Assembly: GCA_001600815.1 (NCBI GenBank)
Contig: BCKZ01000007.1
Span: forward strand, 434,001 to 498,000
DNA: 64,000 bases
From: Alloascoidea hylecoeti
Taxonomy: Eukaryota
Direction of reading: 5' to 3'
Shown here one piece after another: positions 18,485 through 41,860 of this stretch (positions are counted from its first letter, which is position 1; each line of letters opens with the position of its first letter). The translations under genes were made by a program, and so were the position numbers. Below the pieces are notes generated by a model that was not told where the DNA came from, ran no database searches, and worked only from the letters and a program-made list of their open reading frames with translations.

Positions 18485-18530
18485 ATTGAGAATATTGGGG
18501 GCTTAGGGGGGCAGCTCTCAAGTTCTCAAT
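18485..18530. repeat. Small G-rich imperfect palindrome
   Basis: ATTGAGAA..TTGGGGGCT-TAGGGGGGC-AGCTCTCAA.TTCTCAAT; the arms are inverted repeats. Confidence 0.55.
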
Positions 18531-20207
18531 TCAGTGTAACAGTTGTAGAAAAATATAATGCGGCTGAAAATGATTATAAGTTTATAGCCAAATTGATTAT
18601 AGGCATAAATTATCAATTGCTAATACATATCTAAGCTTTTGATCATATAATTAAAAATAATAATTCTTGTAATAATTAATGAATTGTCATTGTTATATAT
18701 AATTAATATTAAGCCTTCTACTCATTTGAAAATTTCAAGACCAAGGCCTTTGTTTTTCAGTACAGTATTATGCGCAAGGGTTTAATTGAGGCTGTGTATG
18801 TGACGAATATGTTCATTGTCGTTAGAAAAAGAGCAAATATGCCAAGAAAAAAAGTGAAACTTTTGAAAATGATGATATAATATGATATATATAACGATCG
18901 TGGCAAAGAAATTGAAAGAATGGAGGCATTGCTATATTTAAAATTATAAATTTTGTTTTTAATAATAACCTCGATCGAGCTCAGCTTACATGTTGGTAAT
19001 TATTTCCTATAATAGGGCAATATTTATTATTACTATTTTTCTATTGAACCCAGGTAAGGAATTCGTTTTTAATTGGCAAAATTATATAGTATATACTTAT
19101 ATAGATAATATATAATAGAAACATGAAAAAAAGTATGTGTTGAATTGTGTTCATTGTGTTGAAAAATGATTATTAGGAATTGAAATCATGGCAGCCTAAT
19201 GTTGCACCGGGTCAAGATAAAACGGGCGTTTATATTTCGGGTACCTTAAATATAGACTGGAGTTGTTAACATTACGTTTAGGATGGTGTTGTATTCAGTA
19301 AGACGAATGTTCGGGTGACAGGATCCGAGTCCGAGAAAGTATGTGCACTGCGAAAGTCAGGCCAAGTTTTCGAGTCAAAAAGGTATTTATAATATAGGGA
19401 ATTCTCTATAAGTGTTATGGTATGGAGTGAAATTTGGAAAAATGGTTGGGAGTACCCATACGCCATGACTCAAGTTTATAAAGAGTGGCAGTCGTTAATG
19501 ACATTAGGAGTGTTAATACTAAATACTAAATACGAAACATAAGACCATTTTACATTGATTAGTAAAATTTCCAGAACATCTTAAGGCCTTGTAGGGTACT
19601 TACTACTCTAATGCCATTTTTATGTGAAGTGAGAGTAAAAAAGTTTAACTTTGACCCAGCTATGATTTACACATCTTCTTTAAATTTAATGGCTTTTTTT
19701 AATTTTACTTATAATCTCCAATTAAAACTTCTAAATAATTTAAGCCTTCTTATTAGAAACTATTAAATTACCGAAATCACTCATAGAGTACAAAACCTCT
19801 TCTTCTTCTTCTTCTTAACTTCTTTTTGACTGTCTCTTCTCCTTTTCTTGTGCGAGTGGTTTTTTTTTTTACTTTTCATATATTTTCCAATTAAATTATA
19901 TAACTAGAAACTAAATAAATTCTGAGGAAATCTCTACTATATATAGTGAAATAAAAACCTCTTTTTCTATCCTTCTTATTCTTGTGTATTATTGTCACTC
20001 TTCTTTCTTCTCTTATGAGCCTAGACCACCTTAAAAGTAATTTTTTTTAATTTTTCAAGTTTTTAGATATTAGAATCCCCCAATCAATCTGATTTAATAT
20101 TTGTGGTGGTGTTCCTGCAAATCTAATATTTTTTCTTAGCTCCTCCTTTTTATATTTTTATGATGGATCTGGAGTTGTCACAATCTTTTTCACAAATATA
20201 TATGTTT

Positions 20208-20279
20208 TCGGCAATAGTTTAGTGGCTAGAATTTCCGCCTGTCACGCGGGGGACCGGGGTTCAATTCCCCGTTGCCGAG
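20208..20279 (+). tRNA. tRNA-Asp(GTC), intronless
   Basis: Acceptor TCGGCAA/TTGCCGA plus G discriminator; A box TAGTTTAGTGG; anticodon arm TCCGC-CTGTCAC-GCGGG; T arm CGGGG-TTCAATT-CCCCG; T-rich terminator follows. Confidence 0.97.
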
Positions 20280-20683
20280 TTTCTTTTTCTGATTCCGCAG
20301 AACCATATATTTTTTAAAAAAATGGGTCGTTTTTTTGTTCTGAATCACTTAGGTGCTATGGACAAAAAAAGAAAAAGAAGAAAGATGTATAAATATTACA
20401 TCCTTTATTCGTATTGATTGAGTAAGAAGTTGGAAATGGTGGCAATAATACTATAAAATGTAACAACATTACTCAAAAAAGAGTGAATTTATAACATTAG
20501 TAATAGGTATTTTTGCCTAGCAATAGGTCTTTTTATTTTCACATTTTTTGGTTGTTATAAATATAGTATTTATAGATAAAGCAGTTTAATATAGAGCCTT
20601 AATGGCCACTTGAAAAAAAAATAAAAAATAATGTAACACTAGAAGCAAAAAATATTGCAAACATTACCAGTCCCCAAGGTATT

Positions 20684-21488
20684 ATGAATATTACTGGTTC
20701 TATCCTCTATGTGGATATAACACAAGTAGATAGTGGTGAAGGCGAGATTACAATTAAGTCAAAAAATCCTACACCAAATCAAATAAGATGGGAAAAATAC
20801 TTACAATCGTATCTCGAAATAACAAAGACAAAAATATTACATAAAATCATTACTTTCATATCCCATCACTTGATGAATATACAGCTTCTGAGGTGGTATC
20901 CAAATCTTCTCCTTTAGAATGTATTAATAATGTTACAACTCATGATGATAAACCAATAGAAATCGAAGCGTTCAGAAGAGCGGCATCAATATACTATCAG
21001 CAAATGGATGATCAACCGATCATTCCTAATTGGCCAACTAGACAAATCAAAGAACGCAGCACACAGGACTGGAATAAATGGTGGCTGCTCGTACACAGGA
21101 TCAATAGGAAAGAACCAGGGTCGGTAGATTTTATTCATAGACTAAATCTTCGACACTACACACATCACTGACTGGAGTCTTACCTCAAGTGATCATAAAA
21201 GTGGTAATATGAATAAGTGTATTCTTTACCTACAACCAATGATCGAAACAGAAGATCATGTTTTCAATTTTCTTACACTTCTTAGGTAAAGATATAAGTT
21301 TGGATGACTTGATATGCCCAACGTACAAAGATACTAAAATAATTCATAATCTAAGCCTAACTTCAGAGATTTTATGGCAGATGCGAGTAAACAGAAGATT
21401 TAACTCATGTGATCTCAAAATAGACTCAGATGCTATTGTTCATTTAGCAAATATTAAACGACGAAAATTGATTCTTAGATATAAATAA
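20684..21488 (+). mobile_element. Decayed 3' part of an L1-clade non-LTR retrotransposon ORF2 (zf-RVT region)
   Basis: Frameshifted fragments WPTRQ..DWNKWWLLVH..DFIHRL; NKCILYLQPMIETEDHVF (21212-21265), a damaged CxxC..ETxxHxF zinc motif; then ILWQMRVNRRFN, matching the LWxxRNxxxF C-terminal motif. Confidence 0.75.
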
Positions 21489-21708
21489 ATACAATAGAGC
21501 CTTTGACTATCCAATTGAAGCGAAAACTTCAAGGTATTACAATAATATCTCATACAGTTGCAGATCACAAATAGTTTCTCTACAAAGATATCTTTAGTTA
21601 CATTATTTCCAAAACATCTCCTAGATGATATCTTAATATTAATACACCTATATAAGACTAAATCTATAGCTAGCTAGAGGTAAAATTGTTGTGGTACATG
21701 AATATCAC

Positions 21709-22203
21709 TCAGTAGTGGAGGCACCAATTTTCAGAGTTTGTACCTGTACGTACATTTTCATTGTAAGGTTGCTCTTTTTTAAACTTTAATTTGAACAAGT
21801 TTTGGTTCTCTTCTGTTCCAAAAATTAAACCAAATTTTACTGACAAAAGTTCTTTATGATTTTCTAGATAATAAGTTCTCTTAATGTCGTCAGTTCTGGT
21901 AATCGTGTATCTTTGATACAGATAATCTTCATTCAGAGTTAAAGAGTCAGGTAATTTAAAATAATCAGAAGAAGAGTCTTTTAATTTATATTCTAGCTGA
22001 ATTACATGAACATGAGTTTTAACTGAAATCGAAGCTGAACGTAGATATATTTCAAGATAACTTTCTCTTTGAAAATTAATTGGGTGGACACCACGGAAAA
22101 TTTTTACCCCACAAACTATGGGATTCGACCATTTTTGTGATAGTTTTGGATCATTTTGAATCAATACTTTTGCTCTCATTTTTGATAATATCTTTTTTTT
22201 CAA
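21709..22203 (-). pseudogene. Unassigned 164-codon open frame, probably the remnant of a longer gene
   Basis: Long stop-free frame in very AT-rich DNA; upstream coding-like sequence from an ATG near 22333 is broken by TGA and a frameshift; no recognised motif. Confidence 0.3.
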
Positions 22204-23999
22204 TGGTGGTTTTGTATCGCCGTTGGTTGCTTCGAATTTTTTTACAACTCACAATTGATTTAAAAACATCTGTAATTGACTTTCAAACTTCCTCTAGTAC
22301 TGTAATTATGTTGTGGTGAAGTTTTTCCGGCATCCGGCCTTCTTATCTTGATCAATTACTGAAATCAAATAAGCTTTTTCTATAGCTATATGATATATTT
22401 ATTATAGTAGTGATTACTTGCAATAATTATAATGTTAAGAAAAAGAGCTTGAAAAAGATACCTTTTTTTAACGTTATAATAATAAATAACATAAGGTAAG
22501 AAACCGTTTTGAACTTTAAAGTCAAATAATACTACATAATTATTATAGTTTAGAGTAATTACATGTAAAATAGCAATCTCGAATTTATCCGATATCTCAA
22601 TTCATCAATTGTATGTTTTTTAATACATTTTTAGTAAGTAGTTACACTATATTTCGAAGGTTAGACCTAGCCCTGATCTAAAAAAGAGAGCAGTCAGCGG
22701 TTTCTCGTACGAGCAAAAATTTTGTGGTTTCTTGATCTTAACATGTTGTTTAGCATGGGTCATTATGATCTACAACAAGTCTTGTCTATGCTAGTATCTT
22801 TTCCATCGACGTTGCTTCAGGCCTGAAGCTGGAATACTGGTTATGTCAATTTCATAATTAGACAATTTCAATAAGTTTGAATGACTTTTTCTAGGTAGAA
22901 GATACAATTACAAGCTTCTATATATGTGTCTATGCGTAGCTAGTAAAAGTTCAGGATGTATACTTATAATCAAGTTTACCATTGATGAGCCTAAGGTTTC
23001 AATTATACAATTATAAATTGTAATTAGACAAATATATGGTACTACATTATTTACTTGTAGATCTTTAACCTTATAAGTTATATGTATGAAAGCTTTTACG
23101 AAATACCATTGAAGAAATGAAACAACTAAGAGAGTTCCCTTTTTGTTTTGCATTCCGACAATATTAATAAAAGTAAGATATAAGTGTTGAGATGGCAAAT
23201 CTTAACGAGTGACCTTTCGGGGTAGTGACAAAGCACATGACTTGATTTTAATCTCCAACTATAAGATCAATTAACATATAATTATTAAGGTTATATGGTC
23301 ACGCTCCTACATTTACATTAACAGTTGAAATGAAAAGTTTAAAGAAAGAAAAAAATAAAATCAAATTGACAAGGTTGAAGAATACGGGGTAGAAAACAAA
23401 ACTGTTGATAATATGGCGCTATAGCTATATATGATACTACTCCATAATCTTAATACATCATAGTATTTTTATCAGGAAATAGTCCATAAAACTAATATAA
23501 AAACTTATATAGCTATACTATATTATTGATGATATATAAAGTGAGTATGACATATCACGAAGATCGATCGCATCGAGGACCCTGCATAGACATACATTAT
23601 TGGATCTACAATCAAAAAATTATAATATTCTTAATTTATACCCAAGTTTAACATTCAAACTTGTCAAAACTACTAATTTAGAATTGTTTTGAAAGCATGC
23701 AACAAACTAAACTCTAAGATGTTATGATGTTTTTCCCACAAGCTAAAGAAATTGATATAGAGATTTGGTTTATCAGAATTCAAACCTAAAAATTTGACAT
23801 TTTGAAGTCTCACTTTATATAACTTGTTATCACAGACACAACCATAGGAGTATTTACAATCAAATTGATTACTGAATAATTATAACTAGCCAAAATATAA
23901 ATCAACAGGTTTTAAGTTTAAAACTAATGTGGGGAACCTGGGGAATTAAACAATATTGATGTTGATAAATCGGCCATCGGTCACCTGATAAGTGATGGA

Positions 24000-24062: not shown

Positions 24063-27000
24063 ATGAACAAACGATCCTCGCGTAAATTGACTTATGTCCT
24101 AACTCCCAACAGGCAAGACCCCGAGAGTAAGGATGGTTCAGCTCACACAGGTCACACGTTGGGGGTGAATGCTCTAGCAGTCGACCCAGATCCCCAGACC
24201 CATTTAGGTCAAAACTACTCCTCACTACTTTACTCTGGTGGTAGAGATGGGGTGGTCGCTATTTGGGGTGCTCCAAAATCAGAAATGAGCGACGACTGTC
24301 TTTTAAACCTACACTCCGAAACTTTAGATTCCTCCGAGGCCCTTGTCAGAAACTCACAAAATAAGGTCTTGGAACTCAATAAAGCCAATCAAGTCCAAAA
24401 TAATGATGCTACTACAAATAGTTACATATCACATTCCCAAATTCACACACATTGGATAAATGACATTGCTCTTGTCAACAACAATCAATCAGTCATCACA
24501 TGCTCTTCAGATTTATCAGTACGACTGTGGAACCCGGACCAGAACTTTGTATATCCAATTGGTCAACATAGAGATTACGTGAAATGTATAGCGACACCTT
24601 CTCAAACATCATCTTGGATTGCAACTGGTGGCTTAGATCAACGTATTATCCTCTGGGATTTGAATGGTAAAGGCAAAAAGTCAGAAATTGATGTTGGCCG
24701 TAAGGGAGAAAATACAAAGGGATCTGTCTATTCTTTGGCTGTCGGTTCTCCTGAAGGTAACATAATTGCCTCTGGAGGACCAGAATCCGTTGTTCGTCTT
24801 TGGGATTCACGAACAATGACGCCAATATTGAAATTTATAGGACATACAGATAATATTAGATCAATATTAGTAAATCAGGCGGGGAATTTGATTTTATCAG
24901 CTTCATCGGATTCTACTATAAAATTATGGTCGGTAACAGCGGGAAAATTGTTAAATACTTTTGATATACATGATACATCAGTTTGGAATTTATTTTCAAA
25001 TGACCCAAATCTTGATGTATTTTATTCATCGGATAGATCCGGCGTTGTCTTTAAAACTGATTTAAGACTAGCTAGACAACAAAGTTCAAATGCTACTATG
25101 ACAGGAAATGAAACCGAATCATCAATCTCGGCTTATCTTTGTAAAGAATCGACCAGTGTACAAGGAGTTGCAGCTGCAAATGGTTCAGTATGGACGGCTA
25201 CTCCAAACTCTTGGATCCATCGGTGGAATGATGTTGAGTTATCGCCTTATCTTGTTAATCAAGCTATTAGAAGAAATCAACTTGATGATCATATTCAATC
25301 TGCCACATTAGCAACCCCACCTTTAACGCCTAAGGTTTTGGTTTCACCTTCGATTGAAGGCCTTGTTTCTTCCACGGAATTGAAATCAATCTCCACGACC
25401 CTAATACAAAGTCTTGATTCTCCAAATGTCACTCCTACTTCTCCGACTTTACCAAACAATGGTATTATTAGAGGCATAATTTCAAATGATAATGCTGAAC
25501 CAATTCAATTGAAGGCTTCTTTTATCTCGATAACGGGAGAACCAATTCTTGATTATACAACATCTTCCAATGACATTAGTGATAAATCCGATCAATTAAA
25601 CCCTGAATCAACACCAGAAGTGACAGTTTCTCCATTATTGGAATTTCCAATTGAGACAATAGAAGGACAATCGGGTCTTATAAAGCACCGTTTATTAGAC
25701 AATAGAAGACATGTACTCACACTTAATACAGAAGGTGAGCTACAGCTATGGGATCTAGTATTATGCAAAGCCTTAAAATCGTGTGGTAAAAGAGATATAG
25801 ATATTATGGCAGATGAATTGAATTCATTAGATTCAATGTCAAATTGGTGTTCAGTGGCTACAAGAGCGGGGAAATTATTCGTTACATTAGATTCTTCTAC
25901 ATGTTTTGATGCAGAAGTTTATATTGATGAAATTGATCAAGAAATGGATTTAAAGAAACAAGATTCTCGTAATGTTTTATCTAATGAATCAAATGATCAA
26001 CGAATAAATTTAGGAAGATGGGTACTGCAAAACTTATTATCAAATTTTACAGAAAAAGAGGTAGAGAAAGACCAGGAATTGAGAGACAGACTAATTAAAG
26101 AACATAAAAAACCATCATTAATGAAGAGAATAACAAGTTCTTCAAACGTAAATCCAAACTTCAATACTAGCATACCAGTAACGTTCGAAAAATCTAGTTC
26201 TCGACCAAATGATCAGGGAACCGAAAATACTGATTATATCGATTTCAAAGAAAAAACTTCCCAGGCAACACATCAACCCCTTTTGGAAACGCATAATGAG
26301 AGCGTGAAAACTAAAACTCCAACTTCATCAGCAAACTCACAGGAGATAAATGTCAATCCAACACCCCATCCACAGCCCCCACCTCAGACTGCACCTGTAC
26401 CTAGTCCTGCACCTACTCCTCCATCATCAATACCATCTGGTGCTCCAAATGGAAATAGTGCTAGTGGTGGTAGTTTAATGGGGAAGCTACGTATGCTGGG
26501 TAGACAGAAATCTAATAAGACAAACGATTCCAAACAACATAACGCTAATACTAATACTCCTACACCTACCAAACCAGAGGTACCGGCTAAACCAGCCCCA
26601 GAAGTTAAAATAGATACAACTGTTAATGGGATACTAGAAAAAATTCACAAAGGTTATGAAACTTCTTCAAACCTGAACATTTCTGGCTTGATTATTCCTG
26701 GTGCGACGGATCTTCCAGTTATCCACATACCTGACGAGACGTTAATAATCATAGGTGACCAAGATGTCGGCGCCGGCGGTATGATAGATATTTACACAGG
26801 TACAGTGGCATCTCTTAGTGAAGATGCTACAAAATTAGAAACAATCTTGCCTGATTGGGTAGGAAACTCTGTTTTACAAGATAAAATTAACGCCAAGGAG
26901 CAGAATAAAGTAAGCTTTATAATTCAAGAATGGAAACCATCACAATCCCATAATAGTTCAACAAGCACAAGCTCTGAAAAGTCATATAATATAGTAGATT

Positions 27001-27275
27001 CGGATAATACGAATAGTTCATTACCACCACTTTCAACAACAGCTACGCGATTGAGTGGATATCGATATCTTAGAGCAGTTAAAGTTCTTAGTTATATTAC
27101 CGAAAGATTTGATCGGCCAACAACTGAAATGAGATCGGGTAAGAAACCAGAGGAATGGTTAGAATTGCTTTGTCAAGATAAAGTCATACCCTTAAAAATG
27201 ACCCTAGCAAGCATTCGAAGTAGAATCTGGAAATCGGGTGGTGATGTTGTATTAACATATAGGAGAAGATATTGA
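24063..27275 (+). CDS. DUF1: WD40 deubiquitinase cofactor (WDR48/UAF1, Duf1/Bun107 family), 1070 aa
   Basis: GHTLGVNAL, YSGGRDG, HTHWINDI, HRDYVKC, KGSVYSLA, GHTDNIRSI, LDNRRHVLT, WCSV, INLGRWVL, C-terminal WLELLCQDKVIPLKMTLASIRSRIWKSGGDVVLTYR. Confidence 0.95.
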   Translation: MNKRSSRKLTYVLTPNRQDPESKDGSAHTGHTLGVNALAVDPDPQTHLGQNYSSLLYSGGRDGVVAIWGAPKSEMSDDCLLNLHSETLDSSEALVRNSQNKVLELNKANQVQNNDATTNSYISHSQIHTHWINDIALVNNNQSVITCSSDLSVRLWNPDQNFVYPIGQHRDYVKCIATPSQTSSWIATGGLDQRIILWDLNGKGKKSEIDVGRKGENTKGSVYSLAVGSPEGNIIASGGPESVVRLWDSRTMTPILKFIGHTDNIRSILVNQAGNLILSASSDSTIKLWSVTAGKLLNTFDIHDTSVWNLFSNDPNLDVFYSSDRSGVVFKTDLRLARQQSSNATMTGNETESSISAYLCKESTSVQGVAAANGSVWTATPNSWIHRWNDVELSPYLVNQAIRRNQLDDHIQSATLATPPLTPKVLVSPSIEGLVSSTELKSISTTLIQSLDSPNVTPTSPTLPNNGIIRGIISNDNAEPIQLKASFISITGEPILDYTTSSNDISDKSDQLNPESTPEVTVSPLLEFPIETIEGQSGLIKHRLLDNRRHVLTLNTEGELQLWDLVLCKALKSCGKRDIDIMADELNSLDSMSNWCSVATRAGKLFVTLDSSTCFDAEVYIDEIDQEMDLKKQDSRNVLSNESNDQRINLGRWVLQNLLSNFTEKEVEKDQELRDRLIKEHKKPSLMKRITSSSNVNPNFNTSIPVTFEKSSSRPNDQGTENTDYIDFKEKTSQATHQPLLETHNESVKTKTPTSSANSQEINVNPTPHPQPPPQTAPVPSPAPTPPSSIPSGAPNGNSASGGSLMGKLRMLGRQKSNKTNDSKQHNANTNTPTPTKPEVPAKPAPEVKIDTTVNGILEKIHKGYETSSNLNISGLIIPGATDLPVIHIPDETLIIIGDQDVGAGGMIDIYTGTVASLSEDATKLETILPDWVGNSVLQDKINAKEQNKVSFIIQEWKPSQSHNSSTSTSSEKSYNIVDSDNTNSSLPPLSTTATRLSGYRYLRAVKVLSYITERFDRPTTEMRSGKKPEEWLELLCQDKVIPLKMTLASIRSRIWKSGGDVVLTYRRRY

Positions 27276-29303
27276 AAAATTATTTATCATTTAATTTATA
27301 TAATTTATAATAGTTACATAGAGATAAAATCATATAATTTATGTAATTACATATACCGGTATGTTAAAATCTATTAATGGATTTGATTCTTTACCTTTTT
27401 ATTTTTATATTTCGTATAATATTTACTTTATAAGGAATAATAATCCCTTAAAAGAATTATTTTTTGTTGTCAGACGAAAGTTTTGAAACTTTATAACTGT
27501 ATCAAAAGAATCGAATTCGAAAAGTATCGTTGACCTTATTGTTGGCATAAAACTATCCAGCGTAGACTAAAACAATAATATATTCATTTCTACAAAATAT
27601 ACGTGAACAGTGAAATTTTAGAGAGAATTAAAAATTAAATATGGTAACAAACACATGTGTAACTAAAACTATAATTCTTAGCTGTGTCAGCACTGAACAT
27701 TTACCACACCACCATCCATATCGGCGAAGCACCCACCAAAGATTTTGATAGACTCAGGGTCTATTCCCTGTTTAATCAATACTGCGTTCGTAATAAAAAT
27801 TAACTTCAAATACAGCATCACCAATTATCATAACCAGTGAAAACCTTCGTAACAAAACAAATTACATCACTATTACATGAGTATGAAACTATGTAGGCTC
27901 CACAGATTTCGCAAGCCATAAAGTTAAGAAATAGGGTCACGTTTGCATAAAGTTGGAAAAGTTGATGACAAGCGTAGTCACACAAACTATTGCTTCTAGT
28001 CTTTATTAGCAAGAAGGGGTTATAGTTTATTAAAAGAACAATTGAAACTAAGATGTAATCATGAGAAATCTTCATTGATATAAAGAGAGATATTGTTATA
28101 AATTAAATAAATTTAAAACTTCTTTTAAGAAGAATCAAGATCAAGAAAAGTAGAAAAAAGAACTTAATGCAATATTATCATTAACGCTGTTTTTATTTTT
28201 ATTAAATTAATATTTCCTATATTAAGATAAACTCCATACAAATACGTAGAGACCATCAACGCTAATTCACCCCATAGGGAAGATACGTGCGGATCATCAA
28301 ATGAAACAACTAATAGATCACATAGATCATACCACGATGAACAATAATGCTAGAGTTAATAATTATTACCTCCTAGCTGCTAACAAGAGTGTCCATCCAG
28401 AAACACATATTCTTTATATACCAGAAGCCCAAACATCACCAATTCCATAAGGAAAATGGGGGGTTTCGCCAATAACAATCTACATTTGATCCCCACATCA
28501 GAAATTAATAGTCCATTAGATCCATGGAAGTGAAATCAGAATCAAATGAACACCCCAAACTCATATTGATTGAATGGTGCAGTAATAGTTTTATGGAGAG
28601 AGTAAACTCAGTTTATCGTAGATATACTTGTTCACTAATTCTCAATTTAAACATATTAATGAAGGTTCATAAAAAATCATTATATTTTTTCAATCTTTGG
28701 TACTTCAGTGCTACTAAATAAAATTATGTTTCACTTAAAATATACCGACCAAAATATAATAAAAACATTTTCTCATTTCTCTAATTATAGGAGAGTGAGA
28801 CGATGGTGGAGATGGAATAATCGCTAATTATAAAGATAAACAGCTTCCAACTGTACGCGTAAAAAAGGGGGAAATGAGACCTTTATAAAACCATATTAAG
28901 ATATTAATTATAATATATTATAGATTTATTTGTTATGTATGACGGTTCTCGTAGAACGGCCTTTCAACGAGGTTAATTATTTAACGATATGCTCCTGCCA
29001 GCGAATATATTATGCAGGAATGCAGATGTACCGGGTTTCTGCCTAGCAAAGGACCGGGTAGAGACTCATTGTTGAAAATGCGACCCGAAAACTTGGCTGA
29101 AGACATAATTATAAGGTTGATCTAATTATTATGTTAACTTATTCCCCTTTTTTCCCTTCTATCTTTCTACTCTATAGTTACGAGTATAAGACAGTGTTCT
29201 TTTGTTTAATCTCGAAACCATACCAGTTTTTCTTGAATTTTTATTTCTCTTCTTTAGCATTGCTTTTTGGGCAATTTATGTTGACTCTGGAAGATCCAAA
29301 AAA

Positions 29304-30161
29304 ATGTCAAAAGCGACGTATCTGAAAAGTCCTAAAACAGATCTAAACACCTTCAGTCCTGATCCAAATACTTTAGAATCACTATCCACTCATGCTGAAA
29401 AAAGTGAAGAGACACAGGGAACAAACTCAAGTCTTCAATTAGAATCCGTGAAAGACGGTGCTCCTGCTCGAGGATCTCCCAATCTTGACTCCCAAGCTTC
29501 TGCTCGGCCTGAGGCCCCCGCGATTATGTTGGAAATGATGAACGATTTGAAGGAGATTGGTATCTGTGATGCTGGATTTAAACTTGTCCAATCATCACCC
29601 ATAACAATAGAAAGAGTTACAGAATTACTAACTATATGGTGTGAATCAAACATAGGGGAAAACTTTCTTGATGAACTAAGGTGCATCATTTCCCAGTCAG
29701 AATCGGATGAATTATATCTTTCTTGCTATTTTTCACCAGAACCACAAGAGAAAAGAGAATATTATATTGAACTATTACTTGATACATCTTTTGGAGAAGA
29801 GGATGAATCATTTACTTTGGAGGCATTGGAACCAGTTCCGAATGGACAATTGGCTATATTCTGTATTGAAGTCCCGTTTGTAAGTGGGTTTTATATGGAT
29901 GACATCAGAGAAGCAGCGTTTACAAACTACGGAAATATATTGCTGTCAATTAAACGTGATGTAGTGAAGATCGCCAAAAGAACTAACGGCCAGAGGAATG
30001 ATATAAAAACGTATAACCATGTTCTGGTTAACTTAGACAAATCTCAGGTGGTATTTAAAAGTCATACTTATTTAAGTCCTCCAAAGGCTATCAACTATTC
30101 TCTTCCTGACGGTGATCTTATTCCAGCAGATATAATTCTTTTGAATAGAGTTAGCTTCTGA
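29304..30161 (+). CDS. Orphan protein A, 285 aa; tandem paralog of 30879-31736; possible LINE ORF1p-like double RRM
   Basis: Intact ORF with a colinear conserved core shared with the neighbour (IGIC, WCE.NI..NFLDE, F.PEP, GQLAIFC..PF..GFYM, FTNYG, KTY.HVLVNL, PP). First ATG at 29304. Confidence 0.85.
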   Translation: MSKATYLKSPKTDLNTFSPDPNTLESLSTHAEKSEETQGTNSSLQLESVKDGAPARGSPNLDSQASARPEAPAIMLEMMNDLKEIGICDAGFKLVQSSPITIERVTELLTIWCESNIGENFLDELRCIISQSESDELYLSCYFSPEPQEKREYYIELLLDTSFGEEDESFTLEALEPVPNGQLAIFCIEVPFVSGFYMDDIREAAFTNYGNILLSIKRDVVKIAKRTNGQRNDIKTYNHVLVNLDKSQVVFKSHTYLSPPKAINYSLPDGDLIPADIILLNRVSF

Positions 30162-30878
30162 GTTACAAACTTCACTCTTCATAATTATATTTTCTTTAAT
30201 GCTTTATCTCTTTTTTATTATGCATTGTATTAGAACGTGGTTGGTGTTTTCGTTTTTTTTTTTTTTTTTGATATTAATGTTATAGACTTTGAATTCATAC
30301 TTTTATTTAATGCACTCAATGTACCAATTATTGATATATTACGGCAAGGTATATTAATTCTTAAGCTTGTAGCTATAGATGTATATAAAAGATTGCAATA
30401 AAAAAATGAATGAGATCTAAACTTTTTAAAGCTAACTGTTACTATCAATTCACGTTGTCTAGCTTATCAATTGTATTTTGGAGTTGGTAATATGCTGTCA
30501 TTAGAAATTTATTTTCAATTGATCATTCATTTAAATTTTCTTTAATTTAATATATTTTAAAAAACAATCACTTAAACATTAATTTTAATTGGGTTTCTAC
30601 TATCTAGGAATAATGCTACTAAAAAGCCATGCAAAGGCACAGTTGCAGAATTAAAAAATCTCCTGAAGCACGCGACCTGCAGTATTGGGACCGGTTAATT
30701 AGTTTAACATAATAATATTGACCCGATTAAAAATATAATTATTAAAAAATAATATTTGGATCTTCACTAATTGCCAACACCTTAACTCCTCCTGAGGTTG
30801 CTTGGAAGTTGGAACTCTTTAATTTCCGACCCATCTTTTTAACATTAGTACTAGTGCTATCAAATCAATTTTGTGATT

Positions 30879-31736
30879 ATGGAACTGTCTAATATGAGAA
30901 GCAACGCAAGTGATAGCCCACCTCTCGCTAAAGGAGACTCTGAAAAGGTTAAAGGCGAGGACGATTTTAACTTTACAGCTTTTAGTCCACAACTTGAGGA
31001 CTTACCTTTCAAAGCAGATGGTGCAGACTATGATGTTAGGACAAGAAGAAACAGTAAATCGCCTGATGTACCTCGTGAACTACTAGATGAGATGCATGAC
31101 CTTCGCTCTATTGGGATTTGTGAGGCAGCATTTGTTGTTAAAACTGAGAATCCATTGACCTCGGACGAAGTTATAGATGGCCTTACTGCATGGTGCGAAG
31201 AGAATATTGAGGGCAATTTTCTTGATGAGATAAGGTCAGTTGTTTCAGAATCAGAAACAGGCTCGATATTTATTTCTGCCTTTTTCGCCCCAGAACCAAA
31301 GGACAGAAAAGATTTTTATATTGAACAGTTTACAACAGTTACATTTGGTGATGAGGAAAAACCTTTCGAGCTTGAATATATGAAACCAGTTCTTGGAGGT
31401 CAATTGGCTATTTTTTGTCTATCTATTCCATTTATCAATGGTTTTTATATGGAAGAGGTTAAAGAGTCGGTATTTACTAATTATGGTCAAGTGTTAATGT
31501 CCCTCCAAACAGATCCAATTAAATTTGCAAAAAGAATTCACGGACAGAAAGTGGATTCTAAAACTTATGATCATGTCTTGGTGAATTTGAACCAAACATA
31601 CCAACCCGACGTTGCCTACAGTAAAAAAGCTGTTCAATATCCGCCCAGATCAATGAATTTTCAACCATTGTCAGCCCCTCCATTTCTTGTCGAGATTCGA
31701 CTGATAACTCGAGTAAATCTTACAAGACCTAACTGA
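30879..31736 (+). CDS. Orphan protein B, 285 aa; tandem paralog of 29304-30161
   Basis: Same conserved blocks with mainly conservative substitutions; divergent, low-complexity N-terminus. Confidence 0.85.
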   Translation: MELSNMRSNASDSPPLAKGDSEKVKGEDDFNFTAFSPQLEDLPFKADGADYDVRTRRNSKSPDVPRELLDEMHDLRSIGICEAAFVVKTENPLTSDEVIDGLTAWCEENIEGNFLDEIRSVVSESETGSIFISAFFAPEPKDRKDFYIEQFTTVTFGDEEKPFELEYMKPVLGGQLAIFCLSIPFINGFYMEEVKESVFTNYGQVLMSLQTDPIKFAKRIHGQKVDSKTYDHVLVNLNQTYQPDVAYSKKAVQYPPRSMNFQPLSAPPFLVEIRLITRVNLTRPN

Positions 31737-32077
31737 TGAATGTTGCAAAAGCGTATTGAACCATGCAATTAGAAATTACATTTTTATTAAACGTAATATA
31801 ATGAACTCGATTCGCATTGATTTAAGGAAATCAAATAACTAATATAGACTAAGAACCTTTTATAATGTGATGGTAATATTTCAAGAAACACAACTATTTT
31901 CTTTTCGCTCTTGTTGTTTGATGTGGTTATATCTGTGTTAGTGTTCATGTTTTCCTGGTTATTCTTGTTTAATTATTAATCTAAGACTTTGATGCCGCAC
32001 AACATTTTATGTTTTTGTAGATTTCCTGAGTAAATTGTTATAGGAACTTGTATTCTACACATATTTGAATAAATTTA

Positions 32078-33091
32078 TTAAAATTCTTCAACTGGTTGTG
32101 AATAATCTCTTTTCAAAATTTCCTGATCTTGATAAAAAGCTCCCTTATGATAATATTTTTGTTTAGATTTCACATCATCTTTAGATTTCGAACTTTCTTT
32201 TTCTTCTGCATCAATTTCTGCTTGGCGCTCTTCTTCGGTCATATTTTCCCGTCGTCGTCTTTCATCTTGTTCTTTTTCTTCTGCTTCTAATAATTCTCTT
32301 TTCCGTAAGAACCGTTTCAGCTCCCGCACTTTCCATTCCGCGTACTCTGCTTCTAGCTCAATATTGTCAGTATCATCAATACCTCCAAGGTCATCATCAA
32401 AATCGTTTTCCAATTTCTTCTCAACTGTTTCTCTTATTACTCTTTCTTCTACTTGTTTCAATGATTGATTTAATGATTGCTTTTTCCTTTCTATTTCTCG
32501 TGATTCTTTCTCCGCCTCTAAGACACTTTTCGACTTTTTAGTGTTCTTTCGATTTTTCCTAGAGAGAGAGAAAATAAGATGTTAGTTAGATCTTATATCT
32601 TCAAAAGATAAATCAGAAACTTATACATACTTTGAAATAAAGACAGGCATTACTTCGTCTTCCGACTCTGATTCCGACTCTGAGTCCGACCCTGGTTCTG
32701 ATTCTGATTCTGATTCTGATTCTGCCTCTGATTCTGATTTTAAATTTTTAACTAAACCAATTGAATTCTCCTGTAATTCTGTTTTGATTGGATTCTCTTC
32801 CGTAGAAGTGTATTCATCATCAGTAACATATTCACCCTCACTACTCTCCTGGTCGTCCTCTTTTTGTTTTGATGTCTCATTTTTATTACCAACCTTAACA
32901 TTTGATAATGATTTTATTATTGGTACAACTGTTTCGAGAGTAGTTGTTGCTTCTATGTTCTCTTCTTCTACATAATCTTCTTCTTCAGAATTCTCATTGT
33001 CACTATCATCATGATCACTATGTTCTGTATCTGCGGCCCTTCCAGGAAAATATCGCCGTCTTTGAAGTTGAGCCAAATTAATCTTTGCCAT
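32078..33091 (-). CDS. MFAP1/Spp381-like spliceosomal B-complex protein, 2 exons: 33091-32631, 32558-32078; 313 aa
   Basis: RRYFPGRA, acidic SE repeats, PVFISK|K, DDTDN.E.EAEYAEWKVRELKR, QKYYHKGAFYQD. Intron 32630-32559 GTATGT..ACTAAC..TAG. Confidence 0.88.
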
Positions 33092-36652: not shown

Positions 36653-37673
36653 ACTTAGGTTTTTAATATGATAAAATGATATGATATATGATAATTAATT
36701 AGCTCTAAAGCACATATAAACTGCCCTATATAGGGACCGAGATTCAAAAGAGTCTGTTTATATTGCTATTTATGTAAGGTTTTAATTAACAATTGGCACG
36801 AATATATATATACTAATTAAATTATACATTCTTGTGAAGCAATTATATCAAGAATATAAATATAAGGTCGGTTACGACTGCAATATTAATTTCGATTCGC
36901 AGATCCCCCAAAGTCGTATGGTTATGTATTATTAATAAAAAACTGCCTCACCCAGTTTAGTAGCTATAAGACTTCCATCCAAGCGCTAGTAAGGTTGTGA
37001 TAATGACTGTAATTAACGGAGTTAGCTATTATTATATTATGAGTTAGTAGATTACTGCTATATCGTTGCCTAACAACTTTTTATTATAAAATACCATAAA
37101 TCTGTACAACGAGGCTACAGAATACATTCTTTGTTATTTAGAATTCGAAGCAAAGGGTCTCCTCAGAGAGTCTCCTCAGAGAGTCTTCTCAAATGAGTTT
37201 ATAAATAAAATCCAATCAAAATGATATCATGAATGTTGCGTTATATCTCTTACTCTCCTCCAATGAGTCCTCATTATCTTCAAATTCTCATCATGAATAA
37301 ATAGATGACATTTTATATTACTTAAATTATAATTTTACGATCTCCCGTATTTTAGATGTACTCAAGCATTTTCTCCATAATTTGAAATAACTGATGCTGT
37401 TCGACTCATTTACACTTAAATTCATCTTTGAAACCAATTGCACCTTATAAATAGATCCTAATAATTTATTTGTATGGCATAATGGCAGTGGGTATTGAAA
37501 CAATAATGTGAGACCATGGGAATTTCACTATTTTCAGGCACCGCTTTAATTTAATAAAATAATTATGAGTAATTGGGTGAATATAAATAAGAGAAAATAT
37601 GTCCTCATAAAATCATAAGTCAAATCACTTAATCGATATTGATCTATTATAATTAGTAAAACTATCAACTATC

Positions 37674-38405
37674 ATGAAGTTAACAATTGAAACTTTACTG
37701 TTATTTATTTCAACCTCTTTGATTGGATTTGCAAATGCTACTCTAATTCAAACTGCAGCTCCTACTGTTTCTGGAATCAATAAATATTTAAGTGATGCAG
37801 CAATAACTTCATATGATACTGCTCTTTATCAAAGTTATTATGATGCTTATGAAAGTTATTATGAAAGTTTATTAACTGATACTGCATTTTGGCAATCTGT
37901 AGAAGATTATATAACTTCTGTTTATGATAGTGAATTCTGGGAAAGTGTGAAAACTGACACTGAGATACTTGGTTACCTAACAAGTGAATTGGGAATAACT
38001 GGTGATCTTGGTGATTACGTTACCGAAGTTCTTGGAGGTTATGGGTCTTACTTAGGTGATGATTTTAGTACTTACATTTCGGAGGTTTTAGAGGAAATTG
38101 ATACTTTATTGGGTAGTGGCTCTGAAGTTTCAACTCAAACGGGGACTGGTGGTTCTGAAGTACCAGCTCAAACTGGTACAACATCCCCAACCTCAACGCT
38201 TTCAACAACTACTTTGAACCAAAAATCTTCTTCCACTAAAGAGGGATCTTCTTCTAACAAAGCTAGCGGAAGTACAATAGAAGCAATTTCTTCAAATGGT
38301 GTAGCTACAGCAGGAATTCCTGGTTCAGTTGCAATTAACCGCTCTTTCAGCTTAATGTTTGTTCCCTTAATTGTCTGTGTTGTTTTATCCATTGGATTGT
38401 GCTGA
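37674..38405 (+). CDS. Predicted GPI-anchored / cell-surface Ser-Thr-rich protein, 243 aa
   Basis: N-terminal signal peptide, Tyr/acidic helical region, S/T-rich stalk, hydrophobic C-terminus FSLMFVPLIVCVVLSIGLC. Confidence 0.85.
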   Translation: MKLTIETLLLFISTSLIGFANATLIQTAAPTVSGINKYLSDAAITSYDTALYQSYYDAYESYYESLLTDTAFWQSVEDYITSVYDSEFWESVKTDTEILGYLTSELGITGDLGDYVTEVLGGYGSYLGDDFSTYISEVLEEIDTLLGSGSEVSTQTGTGGSEVPAQTGTTSPTSTLSTTTLNQKSSSTKEGSSSNKASGSTIEAISSNGVATAGIPGSVAINRSFSLMFVPLIVCVVLSIGLC

Positions 38406-39038
38406 AATTATACACCATATATTATTAACTTTTTCTATCATATATTTACAATCTTTTAATCAATTAATAACATTTATGGTTAGTTTCTAGATATCAGCAG
38501 CTGAATACTCAAAATTAATATTTAAATTTTAAATGAAGTATAATCAAGATACTAAGAACTATTTAGAAACCAGTATCAGTAGTATAAGTACTTATCCCAC
38601 TCTAGCTCATATAAGTACATGTAGAAACTATTTGACGGTAGAGTAGGTATTAGTTGTATTAGTTGAAGGCCCTATAGCTGTACATATAGCCTATGTGAAG
38701 TTTGTGAACGTAGAAAATAGGAAAATCAAGAATTGTTTCCCGAAGTCGCAAGTTAGACTCGGAACTTTTGACAATGGGAAATATTTCATATGTAACAAAA
38801 TAAGCTTAATGATTTTTCAAAGGTAGTCCTCCTATTGATTTTGCTGGATTTGGAGGAAGAACAGGGACTACATTTAAACGCTATATGCCTTATAGGAGAG
38901 AAATCTATTATTATTATATAAATTTATATGTTAATATTTATTGTCCATTAAATACAATAGATATATTATACATAGTACAAATATTATTATTTATTAGAGA
39001 CCCTGGAAAGTATAATATATAATGATCATGGGGTACGA

Positions 39039-40408
39039 TTATGCATCAAATGGGAAATATTTATCTGGACTTATATGCCATCTCTTATCGATAAGCTCGA
39101 TTCCTTTTTCTAGTTCTGTAACATTTATATCATCATTCATTTCATTTGAACCTGCTTTTAATTCATATTCGGAACTACCATATAACATTTCATAGTTTGC
39201 AATTAAACTTAGGAATGATAATTGATCAAATTTTCTTAGTTTAATTAATGATTGTAAGTATTTGATAGATTCTTCATTATTTGATGATAATTTTAACGTA
39301 TCAATTTCATTCCCATTAACTAATTTTATAATTTTTTTTAAGGCTTCAAAATCAATAATATTGATTTTCGATAACCAAAATTTCGCTTCTTTTTGATTTA
39401 AATTTTGAATCTGATCTTTACTAAATGAATTTGATAGTAAAATTAATAATGATAATGATGAAGTGATACCTTCGATTTCTTCCTCTTCCTTCATTGATAT
39501 CTTCTCTTGTTTATTTAAATTTAGATTAATCAATGATTTATAAATGGTTTCAAAATGATTTGAGCAACTTGAATATAATTTCATACCAATTAATGTTGCA
39601 CCAACCGAAAAGATTAAGTTACACATTTTGGAATGTATTAATAAATAGTTAGTATTATTTTGTTTTGATCTTAATACCCATAATAATGAAAAATATTGTG
39701 ATAATAATAGATGGTTGGCTCCTCCGGCCCTTAGTTTGATCAATAAAACTTGTAAATTCCAAGGAACAAATTCAGGAAAAGGGTTCATGAATTTTTTATT
39801 GATATTATCGATATTATTCTCAGATGTTATAGGTGATTGTGATCGTAATTGTGATTGTAACATGGGTAATGGTCTACTACTGCTCCGGTTTCTATTTGGT
39901 CCGGGGCGTGGACTTTGACTTAGGCGGTTCCCCCGCATGGGGCTTGACGTTCTGCTACTTATACTCTCTCCTTCTGATTTAGCTAGATTGTTTTCAAATT
40001 CTCTTTTAGTGATCCGAAATAATTCATTACATATTCTTTGTGATTCAGTTTGTGCAATTTCATTAAGACCATATAAAACTAATGATGATAGTCTAATATA
40101 CCAAAACCCCAATATTAAATCGATTTGATTTGGATTACAGTTTAATATACATGATTTTGATGAAGCAGCTGCATTAAGAAATTTGTTATTCTGTAAATGA
40201 ACATTTAGTTGAGAAATGAAAGTTGATAATGTCGGTGGATGGTCGATATCAAGATTGCTCGGTGTTTCCGTTCCATAGTTTGGTGGCTATATTCAAGAAG
40301 TTTGTGTCAGTTCATGCAAATAAGTTCAAGTCTTATGAAATTATGATAACATACTATTGGAGTTGGAACAAAGATGCCTTGGTCTAACAGCACAACTAGT
40401 TGTGACAT
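39039..40408 (-). CDS. Probable fungal TRAPPC12/TTC15-like protein, 2 exons: 40408-40355, 40286-39039; 433 aa
   Basis: Intron 40354-40287 GTATGT..ACTGAC..TAG joins the ATG exon in frame. Motifs FLNAA, FWYIRLSSL..E and VPWNLQVLLIKL recall fungal TRAPPC12-like proteins; the family call is from memory. Confidence 0.7.
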
Positions 40409-40593
40409 ATGCGGTGAAGAGATCTGAGAATGTTGGGCAGATGGTTTTAAATTGGTGTCTCATCCTTCCATCTTTTATATGCCGTCTGACTGTTAAGGTA
40501 ACATAGCATTATGCAATTCTGCATACTACCTTATCAGTATTAATACATGCTGGATTTCAAAAAAGCTAATAGTTTATAATATTCTCATACATA

Positions 40594-41835
40594 CAGTGGG
40601 TCATCTCTAGATATGCCTAATGCATGTTGCAACCTAAAATATGCATGATTTATAAACATAAAATCAGATTAAAACATCAATTCTAAAATAAATATAATGA
40701 AATAAAATAAAATTCAGCTTCTCCATCTCTGTGAGTATCGCCAGACACAAATTCAATAGTTTATATGACCACCTTTTACTTCTATAATTAGGTTTAGTCG
40801 CTTAGGTATCGATTCTATGAGTTTGTCAAAATATGAATGATTTATACTATCCCATAGCTCTGTGAGTACTTCTGAAAGGCGTCTTCAAACCGTATCTACA
40901 CTTCCTTTCATGGTGGCGATTTCTTTATGTTGTTTTCTCAGCTCAATTTTGATCTTATGCCACGCGTTTTCAATGGGACTTAGGTCTGGAGAGTTGGAAG
41001 GCCAAACTAGCTGATTAATCTGATATTCCTCCAAAATCCCTCGGGTTTTTTTTAGAATTGTGAATGGGAGCATTATCCTGTTGGAACATAGCACCTTCAA
41101 ACTCCCGGATAAAAGGTATAGCTACTGGTTTTAACACTTCTTCGATGTATCTCTCAGAATTAATCGCACCAGCATCAAAAGTTACCAATTGGGAACGTTT
41201 TTGACCCCAAAGGCTCCCCACACCATCACGGAGACATTTTTGGTTTTAAATCTTGGTAACATATACTTTGTATCTATCACCCATTTTTTGGAAGCAAGAC
41301 TTGGGGGCTGTTGAGCCAACTTTTAAGATGGATGATTCACCAGAAAATATTACTTTCTTCCAATTATCAATGGTAAAATGCAAATATTTCTCAGCAAACA
41401 AGAGTCGGTCAGCTTTGTGTTTATCCGTTAACATAGGTTTCTCTTGCATTTTTTTCCATTCATAATTGTGTTTCTTTATTGTTCTCCGAATGGTGATAGG
41501 CGCTATTTCATATCTCTCTGAAGCTGCTAATTCTTTGACATTTTTTGTTGGACTTCTTGGAAGCAGTGCTATAATTATCTACAGTGCCGGTTTTTTTGTA
41601 ACGTTTCCAGACGCGTCATGCTGTGCTTGGATCAACACCTATAATTTTTGCAGTTTGACTATGATTTTTACCTTCATCAACCAAATGCTTTTCTTTATCA
41701 GTTAACCTCCTCATATATATTTTGATTGGCCAAAAATTAAAGTTTGGCTTGGATATTCTAAAATAAAATTTATAAATAATTTTACGCGTCGGAGAAAAAA
41801 AAAAGTTGGGCAATACCACAGATTACCCATCACTG
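40594..41835 (-). mobile_element. Decayed Tc1/mariner (DD34E) DNA transposon, 1242 bp
   Basis: TA|CAGTG...CACTG|TA termini with imperfect ~30-bp TIRs. Frameshifted transposase: LTDKHKADRLLFAEKY, WKKVIFSGES (first D changed to G), VMVWGAF, FQQDNAPIH, WPSNSPDLSPIENAW. Confidence 0.93.
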
Positions 41836-41860
41836 TATGTATATTACCATTCCATATCAA

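Follow-up and report, generated by a model that had tools for sequence, protein, structure and literature searches.

This locus raises the question of whether two neighbouring genes of the yeast Alloascoidea hylecoeti are ordinary host genes or the domesticated remains of a retrotransposon. An earlier note, made from the sequence alone, had proposed the latter, namely descent from the ORF1 protein (ORF1p) of a LINE element that had kept a double RRM and lost its zinc knuckle. Within the window, the whole 64-kb stretch of DNA that was analysed, the genes are as follows.

29304..30161, + strand: gene A, a 285-aa ORF (P0001), the more diverged paralog, 42% identical to gene B over 222 aa
30879..31736, + strand: gene B, a 285-aa ORF (P0002)

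The two same-strand 858-nt ORFs described in the earlier note are exactly these two in the ORF listing, where each measures 858 nt including the stop and runs for 285 aa from the first ATG; public annotation starts gene B at Met6 (position 30894; P0003, 280 aa). Gene A is followed by an AT-rich spacer of 718 nt and then by gene B, and the intron signal GTATGT is absent from the + strand inside either ORF.

When compared by BLASTP, the two proteins share 94 of 222 aligned residues (42% identity, 70% positives, E 8e-74) with a single 3-residue gap, over a span reaching from residue 66 to 284 in A and from 59 to 280 in B. This core is colinear, as had been claimed, and at about 220 aa is longer than the ~175 aa originally given. 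Identities at codon positions 1, 2 and 3 of the core are 61%, 68% and 38%, which shows constraint at the protein level, and pN is 0.355 versus a saturated pS of 0.768. The alignment and the codon positions thus uphold the claim of intact paralogs under purifying selection. Before the core lie the N-terminal tails.

29304..29498, + strand: N-terminal tail of gene A (aa 1-65), S/P/E-rich, non-conserved and outside the BLASTP alignment; probably disordered
30879..31052, + strand: N-terminal tail of gene B (aa 1-58), non-conserved, with no secondary structure and a pLDDT of 24-31 in the single-sequence model; probably disordered

Identity between the tails is 19% over 58 aligned codons, in keeping with the unrelated N-termini that had been noted.

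Could such ORFs be non-functional, either open by chance or recently dead pseudogenes that have yet to close? No family member carries a named annotation in the collections searched, as this reading would have it, but the chance of 285 stop-free codons given the composition of the window is 1.9e-10 per ORF, and A and B are excluded as chance ORFs. Also at odds with it are the strong asymmetry between codon positions in copies saturated at synonymous sites, the existence of a third intact member from another source (P0004, below), and ORFs that stay invariant while their flanks vary. Gene A is identical in a metagenome contig and a second assembly, the flanks of which differ, and all six differences listed for contigs from two other studies fall outside both ORFs.

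28661, 28768, 28769 and 30180: substitutions between contigs
after 30356 and after 31740: insertions between contigs

The ORFs occupy 1716 of the 4001 bases in this contig comparison, so that all six differences would miss them by chance with a probability of 0.57^6 ~ 0.03, a weak result; in contigs from other runs each ORF was covered once. One metatranscriptome yielded no contig over the region, which has no bearing on whether the genes are expressed. We regard a non-functional pair as very improbable, a reading that the paralog alignment, the phmmer relatives and the codon statistics have already effectively refuted.

The family to which the genes belong is very small. Searched exhaustively with phmmer, 1.84 billion representatives yielded three hits at E<=0.001, two of them true relatives and one of these the paralog itself, by which A and B count as near-orphans, in support of the earlier note. 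The only non-paralog relative, and the closest one outside the locus, is P0004, an intact protein of 273 aa with 47-48% identity to gene B over its full length and 53% over the core. The remaining hit was judged spurious, since its 601-aa sequence is repetitive and the match breaks up into 8 short stretches. When 5.8 billion clusters were searched with a profile, the same three family members came back and nothing further, none of the 301 pattern matches from a metagenome scan with the three-sequence alignment was confirmed as a family member, and a metagenome scan with a degenerate motif pattern gave no matches. Inside the 64-kb window, tblastn with both proteins found only A and B. The best reading of these searches is that the family is restricted to a narrow yeast lineage.

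The setting of the pair is an ordinary housekeeping neighbourhood. A and B are flanked on one side by a WD40-DUF3337 gene and on the other by an intron-containing gene for an MFAP1-type splicing factor, which is convergent and has its 3' end downstream of gene B; the neighbours comprise WD40+DUF3337, MFAP1, serine carboxypeptidase, PP2C, PTH2, SEP-UBX, PDH E1-beta, FIT and Med31. The only transposon relic found in the window is a Tc1/mariner element at 40888-41578, and the tRNA was the sole hit when the window was scanned with Rfam. Each of the two genes is preceded by a GC-rich patch.

29033..29088, + strand: GC-rich patch upstream of gene A, with four colinear 7-mers in common with the gene B patch
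30591..30726, + strand: matching GC-rich patch upstream of gene B, where these four 7-mers recur in unchanged order

The four GC-rich 7-mers common to both patches compare with 1.15 expected, and 23 of 500 shuffles also reach four; a common promoter module is possible, weakly suggested by these counts. Inverted repeats on either side of the pair (28134-28196 and 32106-32157) were rejected as chance, with a blastn E of 0.009 in a comparison of 2 kb with 1.6 kb.

As to what the proteins might look like, structure models suggest that the conserved core most likely forms a pair of small alpha/beta sandwiches whose topology is ferredoxin-like (RRM-like). The AlphaFold model built from the three-sequence alignment is weak (pLDDT 55, pTM 0.50; the five models have pLDDT 55, 51, 44, 42 and 36), and the one built from a single sequence is unusable (pLDDT 33). 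Before domain 1 the model has a single 12-residue helix (aa 66-77), after which the domains of gene B were placed as follows.

31110..31388, + strand: domain 1 of gene B (aa 78-170), strongly acidic alpha/beta, modelled as beta-alpha-beta-beta-alpha-beta; mean block pLDDT about 69
31389..31733, + strand: domain 2 of gene B (aa 171-285), mildly basic alpha/beta, modelled as a strand, a helix and three strands; mean block pLDDT about 48

All six elements predicted for domain 1 in the earlier note (AAFVVK, DEVIDGLTAW, IRSVVS, IFISAFF, KDFYIEQF and FELEY) coincide with strands or helices of the low-confidence model. Its 'double RRM' is not supported: the model reproduces the proposed order of elements in the first domain, but gives the second a low pLDDT and no second helix. 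Nor did hhalign of the sub-alignments point to an internal duplication relating domain 1 to domain 2 (probability 0.4%, E 0.15, 13 columns). A canonical RRM has RNP2 on beta1 and RNP1 on beta3; both motifs are absent from the predicted beta1 (AAFVVKT) and beta3 (IFISAFF) of domain 1, where single aromatics are kept and the RNP consensus is not, and the Gly preceding beta3 of gene B is not conserved in A or P0004. Domain 1 carries the motif W-C-E-x-N-I-x-x-N-F-L-D-E-x-R, invariant in an alignment that, with three sequences, resolves conserved columns poorly. The charge is unevenly spread, with a pI of 4.05 and a net charge of -14 in domain 1 versus 9.3 and +4 in domain 2, and the three full-length proteins have a pI of 4.54, 4.69 and 4.94.

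Fold searches with this model gave lists dominated by ferredoxin-like or RRM-like proteins, among them Pop5, YlmH, Cmr3 and U2AF65. The best match reached Z 7.8 for domain 1 (model residues 19-112), and the matches to domain 2 (model residues 113-227) had Z 5.7-6.5; since a Z of 7-8 is the usual best score for models without true relatives and none of 48161 chains scored Z>=8, we take the matches to be generic and at background level. Neither Foldseek nor the BFVD fold search gave a match at E<=0.001. The best scores for domain 1 came from single ferredoxin-like domains, those of the RNase P protein Pop5/Rpp14 and others (YlmH RRM-like, Cmr3 RAMP, ACT, HMA), led by 2czv_D (Z 7.8) and 8s1u_V (Z 7.8, rmsd 2.1 over 71 residues) and, in Foldseek, including 3wz0_A (prob 0.97, TMt 0.51); identity to all of these is 7-12%, and neither sequences nor profiles link them to domain 1. 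Tandem-RRM proteins (Prp24, U2AF65, HuR/Sxl and the DBHS proteins NONO/SFPQ) also have two alpha/beta sandwiches in succession, as modelled here. They take up a large share of the Foldseek list, with E of 0.02-0.2, and the alignment of yeast Prp24 (4n0t_A) extends over both domains of the model (151 residues, Z 6.7, rmsd 4.5), all of these matches being at background level. Unlike these proteins, the A/B family has no Pfam RRM, no canonical RNP1 or RNP2, a strongly acidic domain 1 and a domain 2 modelled without its second helix.

Such lists invite the reading that A and B are highly diverged members of a widely conserved cellular family, such as a non-canonical RRM, an ACT-like domain or another ferredoxin-like regulator, with their 'orphan' status an artefact of evolution too fast for sequence methods. 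Common cellular ferredoxin-like and RRM-like domains are indeed all that the fold lists show, the surrounding genes are conserved housekeeping genes, the N-terminal tails have diverged very rapidly, and among the language-model neighbours of the core is a cluster with RRM_1 in 18% of its members (scores 0.84-0.86, below the Atlas threshold of 0.9). Against this, hmmscan of Pfam at E<=10 gave only the chance-level rows UvrD_C (E 0.16) and Kdo_hydroxy (E 0.23), sequence and profile searches of the PDB with the family gave no credible match, the exhaustive phmmer search brought up no distant cellular relatives, and the predicted beta1 and beta3 lack the canonical RNP motifs. We consider this reading unlikely, while giving it appreciable weight.

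The remaining reading is that of the earlier note: a type I LINE ORF1p (RRM-RRM-CCHC) would have been captured by the host, lost its knuckles and ORF2, and then been duplicated, and by analogy with L1TD1 in mammals its products would be RNA-binding proteins, perhaps able to modulate retrotransposons. Speaking for it are the predicted topology of domain 1, reproduced by the model, and arthropod clusters among the language-model neighbours with PRE_C2HC (0.80), zf-CCHC in 12% of members (0.81) and DUF4780 (0.82), though all scores are below 0.9 and shuffled proteins reach 0.8 one-third of the time. According to PMC3087515, the Helena LINE has PRE_C2HC in its gag-like ORF1. ORF1 proteins are described in PMC4641428 as fast-evolving and poorly conserved between lineages, so that missing sequence similarity is compatible with ORF1p descent, and the EKA family treated there provides a fungal precedent for the co-option of ORF1.

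Several features that would mark an ORF1p were absent. By the definition in PMC4120745, a type I ORF1p has a CCHC zinc knuckle directly preceded by one or more RRMs; neither C-x2-C-x4-H-x4-C nor CxxC occurs in any of the three family proteins, and no CCHC relic was seen in the three forward frames within about 400 nt past either stop. Pfam at E<=10 gave no Transposase_22, PRE_C2HC, DUF4780, zf-CCHC or RRM family. Reverse transcriptase, endonuclease and ORF1 families were found in none of 181 scanned window ORFs (0/109 and 0/72), no ORF2 follows A or B, and no dispersed copies turned up, with A and B alone in the window and three family members among the 1.84 billion representatives. ORF1 proteins are nucleic-acid chaperones and basic, whereas the A/B family has a pI of 4.5-4.9 and only domain 2 is mildly basic. 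The AlphaFold and Foldseek comparison that the earlier note had suggested did return ferredoxin-like and RRM-like folds, all of them generic; no ORF1p chain, that of L1 included, was among the fold-search matches listed. An L1-clade remnant said to lie 8 kb away was not found by window ORF scans, Pfam or PDB phmmer, the only transposon relic detected nearby being the Tc1/mariner element; its likeliest candidate, a frame-broken ORF series at 20603-21488 beside tRNA-Asp, came up empty in Pfam, PDB phmmer and a longer protein search, a result short of disproof. Neither sequences nor profiles matched an ORF1p or RRM family, knuckles and their relics are absent, no ORF1p is among the listed folds and the products are acidic; the claim of LINE descent is not sustained, and we hold a domesticated ORF1p to be improbable.

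Known ORF1 proteins and their captured derivatives can be compared with A and B. The two proteins are of the same order of size as type I ORF1p (such as that of Candida Zorro, with its RRM region and zinc knuckles) and type II ORF1p (L1), and possibly share an RRM-like fold with them, but A and B have no ORF2, no repeats and no sequence similarity to them, and are acidic. Two zinc knuckles are reported for Zorro ORF1 (PMC3956500), and A and B have none; type II ORF1p has the order coiled coil, RRM, CTD, and the weak A/B model has one short helix before domain 1. L1TD1 and the Blumeria EKA genes are host genes derived from LINE ORF1, and would represent an analogous process only if A and B came from ORF1p, in which case the likeness would lie in single-locus host genes flanked by conserved neighbours. 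The origin of L1TD1 was shown by the 30-43% identity to L1 ORF1p that it retains (PMC4161310), with nothing comparable here, and the EKA genes keep their link to >1350 homologues and to LINE copies (PMC4641428), while no link of A and B to any element could be shown. It is likewise improbable that A and B are to yeast what L1TD1 is to mammals, a type I ORF1 with RRM-like domains that lost its knuckles, was captured at a single locus and duplicated in tandem, and now serves as an acidic decoy or adaptor hindering or exploiting retrotransposon RNPs. If an ORF1p origin were true, it would add a genetically tractable yeast example to the very few known cases of host capture of LINE ORF1, L1TD1 in mammals and the EKA effectors in powdery mildew, and budding yeasts would have their first reported case of a domesticated ORF1p (a non-exhaustive literature search found none).

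On balance we favour, with modest confidence, a real host gene pair that arose by an old tandem duplication in a narrow lineage, each protein having a tail and a ~220-aa core of what are likely two alpha/beta sandwich domains. The duplication would have given two acidic proteins of ~285 aa in which a fast-evolving, probably disordered N-terminal tail precedes the conserved core. Judged by its charge and conserved motif, domain 1, very acidic and without canonical RNP motifs, would more likely bind proteins through a 'pseudo-RRM' surface that has the invariant WCExNIxxNFLDExR loop at its centre. Domain 2, being mildly basic, could be in contact with RNA or some other partner. A regulatory role is conceivable for the variable tail. 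Read in this way, A and B are a further taxon-restricted yeast gene family, real and constrained, probably with a very common fold, of use to annotators and as a modest example of tandem paralogs that have been retained.

Both open reading frames of the pair, for which the earlier note had claimed 858 nt each, appear in the ORF listing at the positions given there:

29304..30161, + strand, gene A (protein P0001), 858 nt including the stop, 285 aa
30879..31736, + strand, gene B (protein P0002), 858 nt including the stop, 285 aa

The window is AT-rich (GC 0.28–0.40), with a stop probability of 0.076 per codon at its composition, so that a frame of 285 open codons has p = 1.9e-10. No GTATGT occurs on the + strand inside either ORF. 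BLASTP aligned the two proteins with 94/222 identities (42%), 70% positives and one 3-residue gap (E 8e-74). As this alignment spans A 66–284 and B 59–280, the colinear core described earlier is present and measures ~220 aa, the previous size of ~175 aa being too small, and the N-termini are indeed unrelated (19% identity over the first 58–65 residues). Across 220 aligned core codons, A and B are identical at 61%, 68% and 38% of first, second and third positions, with pN 0.355 and pS 0.768 (saturated). Such a pattern is what lasting constraint on the protein leaves behind once a gene has been duplicated long ago, in support of the purifying selection proposed before. CTG codons are scarce in the genes of the window (0–4 per gene). 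Among the five that the pair contains, two code for positions where Leu is invariant (A aa 241, B aa 275), so CTG is likely read in the standard way rather than by the CTG-Ser code.

The stretch 28500–32500 is also present in a second assembly of the same organism and in a wood-decay metagenome, where 0.97 of its sampled words were found and contigs match at at least 99%. Against the contigs from these two further studies, the stretch shows six listed differences, every one of them outside both ORFs:

28661, 28768, 28769 and 30180, intergenic substitutions
after 30356 and after 31740, intergenic insertions

Wherever they are covered, the two ORFs show no change (the listed pieces of one contig set, X4, miss 31469–31492). 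Since the ORFs make up 43% of this interval, the chance of all six falling outside is by arithmetic about 0.03, a weak hint of constraint.

Both genes are preceded by four GC-rich 7-mers (GGGTTTC, GCAAAGG, GGACCGG and GACCCGA), arranged alike:

29033, 29046, 29051 and 29082, shared 7-mers upstream of A (within 29033–29088)
30591, 30631, 30688 and 30720, shared 7-mers upstream of B (within 30591–30726)

Against 1.15 expected, four were reached in 23 of 500 shuffles, which weakly suggests that A and B may be under common regulation. Each upstream region also holds one ACGCG core, at 28855 (A) and 30670 (B).

Around the pair the DNA is ordinary chromosomal sequence from a yeast-like eukaryote, with a recognizable gene on either side:

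24063–27275, WD40 + DUF3337 protein of 1070 aa, upstream of the pair
32081–33091, - strand, MFAP1/Spp381-type splicing-factor gene, convergent, downstream of the pair

The latter matches PF06991 at 32081–32581 (E 2e-31) and has a short intron (GTATGT 5' site at 32625–32630) and an acidic first exon (32621–33091), in which a 6/12-nt tandem repeat at 32660–32739 encodes Ser/Glu/Asp runs. More distant genes encode a serine carboxypeptidase, PP2C, PTH2, SEP-UBX, a lysophospholipase, a globin-domain protein, PDH E1-beta, FIT, Med31 and an AMP-binding enzyme. The globin domain (residues 345–427, E 2e-11) is the sole Pfam match of a 572-aa ORF at 52432–54150 (-), an unusual length for such a protein. 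Several other genes in the window are likewise unassigned, being ORFs of 156–473 aa with no Pfam family at E<=0.001: 15701–16510 (+), 37674–38405 (+), 39039–40286 (-), 45322–46743 (+) and 21709–22248 (-). An Rfam scan of the window returned tRNA-Asp only (20208–20279).

Relatives of the pair are few. A phmmer search of 1.84 billion cluster representatives of all lengths gave three matches at E<=0.001: the paralog, P0004, and a 601-aa tandem-repeat protein judged spurious (8 short stretches, E 1e-4). P0004, a family member from outside the window, is intact at 273 aa and 47–48% identical to B over almost its whole length; in the core its identity is 53% with B and 46% with A, and it shares with B a C-terminal APPFLVEI-LIT motif. 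A three-member profile run against 5.8 billion clusters recovered the same three members and nothing more, two metagenome scans found no further members, and none of the three family clusters looked up is named. Pfam at E<=10 gave only two chance-level rows for the pair, and PDB sequence and profile searches no credible match.

AlphaFold reached pLDDT 33 from a single sequence. With A2, the three-sequence core alignment of A, B and P0004, the five models had pLDDT 55, 51, 44, 42 and 36, the best with pTM 0.50.

Elements of the A2 model, mapped onto P0002 residues
66–77, domain 1, leading helix
83–89, domain 1, first strand (AAFVVKT)
95–109, domain 1, first helix
118–124, domain 1, second strand (IRSVVSE)
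130–136, domain 1, third strand (IFISAFF)
142–153, domain 1, second helix
163–168, domain 1, fourth strand (FELEYM)
174–182, domain 2, first strand (GQLAIFCLS)
191–208, domain 2, first helix
234–238, domain 2, second strand
258–261, domain 2, third strand
269–280, domain 2, fourth strand

In the model, domain 1 (mean block pLDDT about 69) follows the order beta-alpha-beta-beta-alpha-beta, in which each of the six elements named earlier for it has its counterpart. Of the proposed double RRM, this low-confidence model gives the element order of domain 1; domain 2 (about 48) is modelled without a second helix. Foldseek gave no PDB match at E<=0.001; its best rows (E 0.016–0.2) were engineered ferredoxin folds, tandem RRMs, ACT pairs, Cas6-like proteins and Pop5, and re-examination of the top 999 chains gave the same picture. 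VIA-align found no chain at Z>=8 among 48161 representatives, its best matches, YlmH and Pop5, scoring 7.8, where a best Z of 7–8 is usual for models without true relatives; the tandem RRMs of Prp24 cover both domains (151 residues, Z 6.7). By hhalign the two domains show no similarity to each other (probability 0.4%). From the model, the core probably comprises two alpha/beta domains of the ferredoxin-like kind with an RRM-like order of elements, and the fold is probably a common one.

The earlier note had read the pair as domesticated LINE ORF1p. An ORF1p counts as type I if one or more RRMs directly precede CCHC knuckles, and as type II if it has the order coiled coil–RRM–CTD (PMC4120745); in Candida, Zorro ORF1 belongs to type I and carries two knuckles (PMC3956500). 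No member of the A/B family has a CCHC or even a CxxC, and no knuckle relic lies in the three forward frames within about 400 nt downstream of either stop. The absence of knuckles is therefore confirmed, as is that of an ORF2 after the pair. In the window, tblastn found neither a third nor any dispersed copy of A/B, and no ORF1p chain was among the fold-search rows shown. The origin of L1TD1 is described as based on 30–43% identity to L1 ORF1p (PMC4161310), whereas A/B have no such sequence or profile match in Pfam at E<=10. The sole positive hint comes from the language-model Atlas, where the named clusters nearest the core include RRM_1 (18% of members, 0.86), DUF4780 (0.82), zf-CCHC (12% of members, 0.81) and PRE_C2HC (0.80), the last present in the gag-like ORF1 of Helena, a LINE (PMC3087515); as all these scores lie below the threshold of 0.9 and shuffled proteins reach 0.8 one third of the time, this is a lead only.

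Transposon remains were sought by scanning 181 stop-to-stop ORFs against Pfam: 109 of at least 40 aa in 18500–23900 and 36700–44400, and 72 from the remainder of the window, picked from 128 of at least 62 aa by leaving out those nested in or antisense to identified genes and adding the open-ended ORF 62507–64000. No ORF of either set matched a family of reverse transcriptases, endonucleases or ORF1 proteins. Among the 109, two identify a decayed Tc1/mariner transposase in separate broken frames (40888–41578), the sole transposon relic detected in the window; they are given here with a separate series of ORFs near the tRNA:

41249–41578, - strand, HTH_Tnp_Tc3_2 (E 2e-10)
40888–41121, - strand, DDE_3 (E 3e-6, slightly under the curated cut-off)
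20603–21488, + strand, three successive ORFs (104, 108 and 81 aa) in shifting frames, ~320 nt past tRNA-Asp

The third feature has the look of a pseudogene or an element relic with a broken frame and, as the likeliest candidate, may be what was taken for an L1-clade remnant 8 kb away; it has no relatives in Pfam, PDB or the protein database, and the remnant is not confirmed. With knuckles, ORF2 and profile match all lacking, the domestication reading has gained no positive support and fails on several of its defining features. ORF1 proteins are reported to evolve fast (PMC4641428), which leaves descent from one some room, and we hold it to be very unlikely.

What is observed is two constrained paralogs, each with a conserved core behind a variable tail, whose halves differ in charge: the proteins have pI 4.5–4.9, domain 1 pI 4.05 (net -14) and domain 2 pI 9.3 (net +4). 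Domain 1 is acidic and lacks RNP motifs, and where its helix 1 ends, W-C-E-x-N-I-x-x-N-F-L-D-E-x-R is invariant; it would more likely offer a surface to other proteins than bind RNA. Domain 2, being mildly basic, may touch RNA or some partner, and the N-terminal tails, which carry S/T-P sites, may regulate. A and B are real genes that form a lineage-restricted tandem pair; the collections searched contain no named member of their family, and they add to the large class of taxon-restricted yeast genes.
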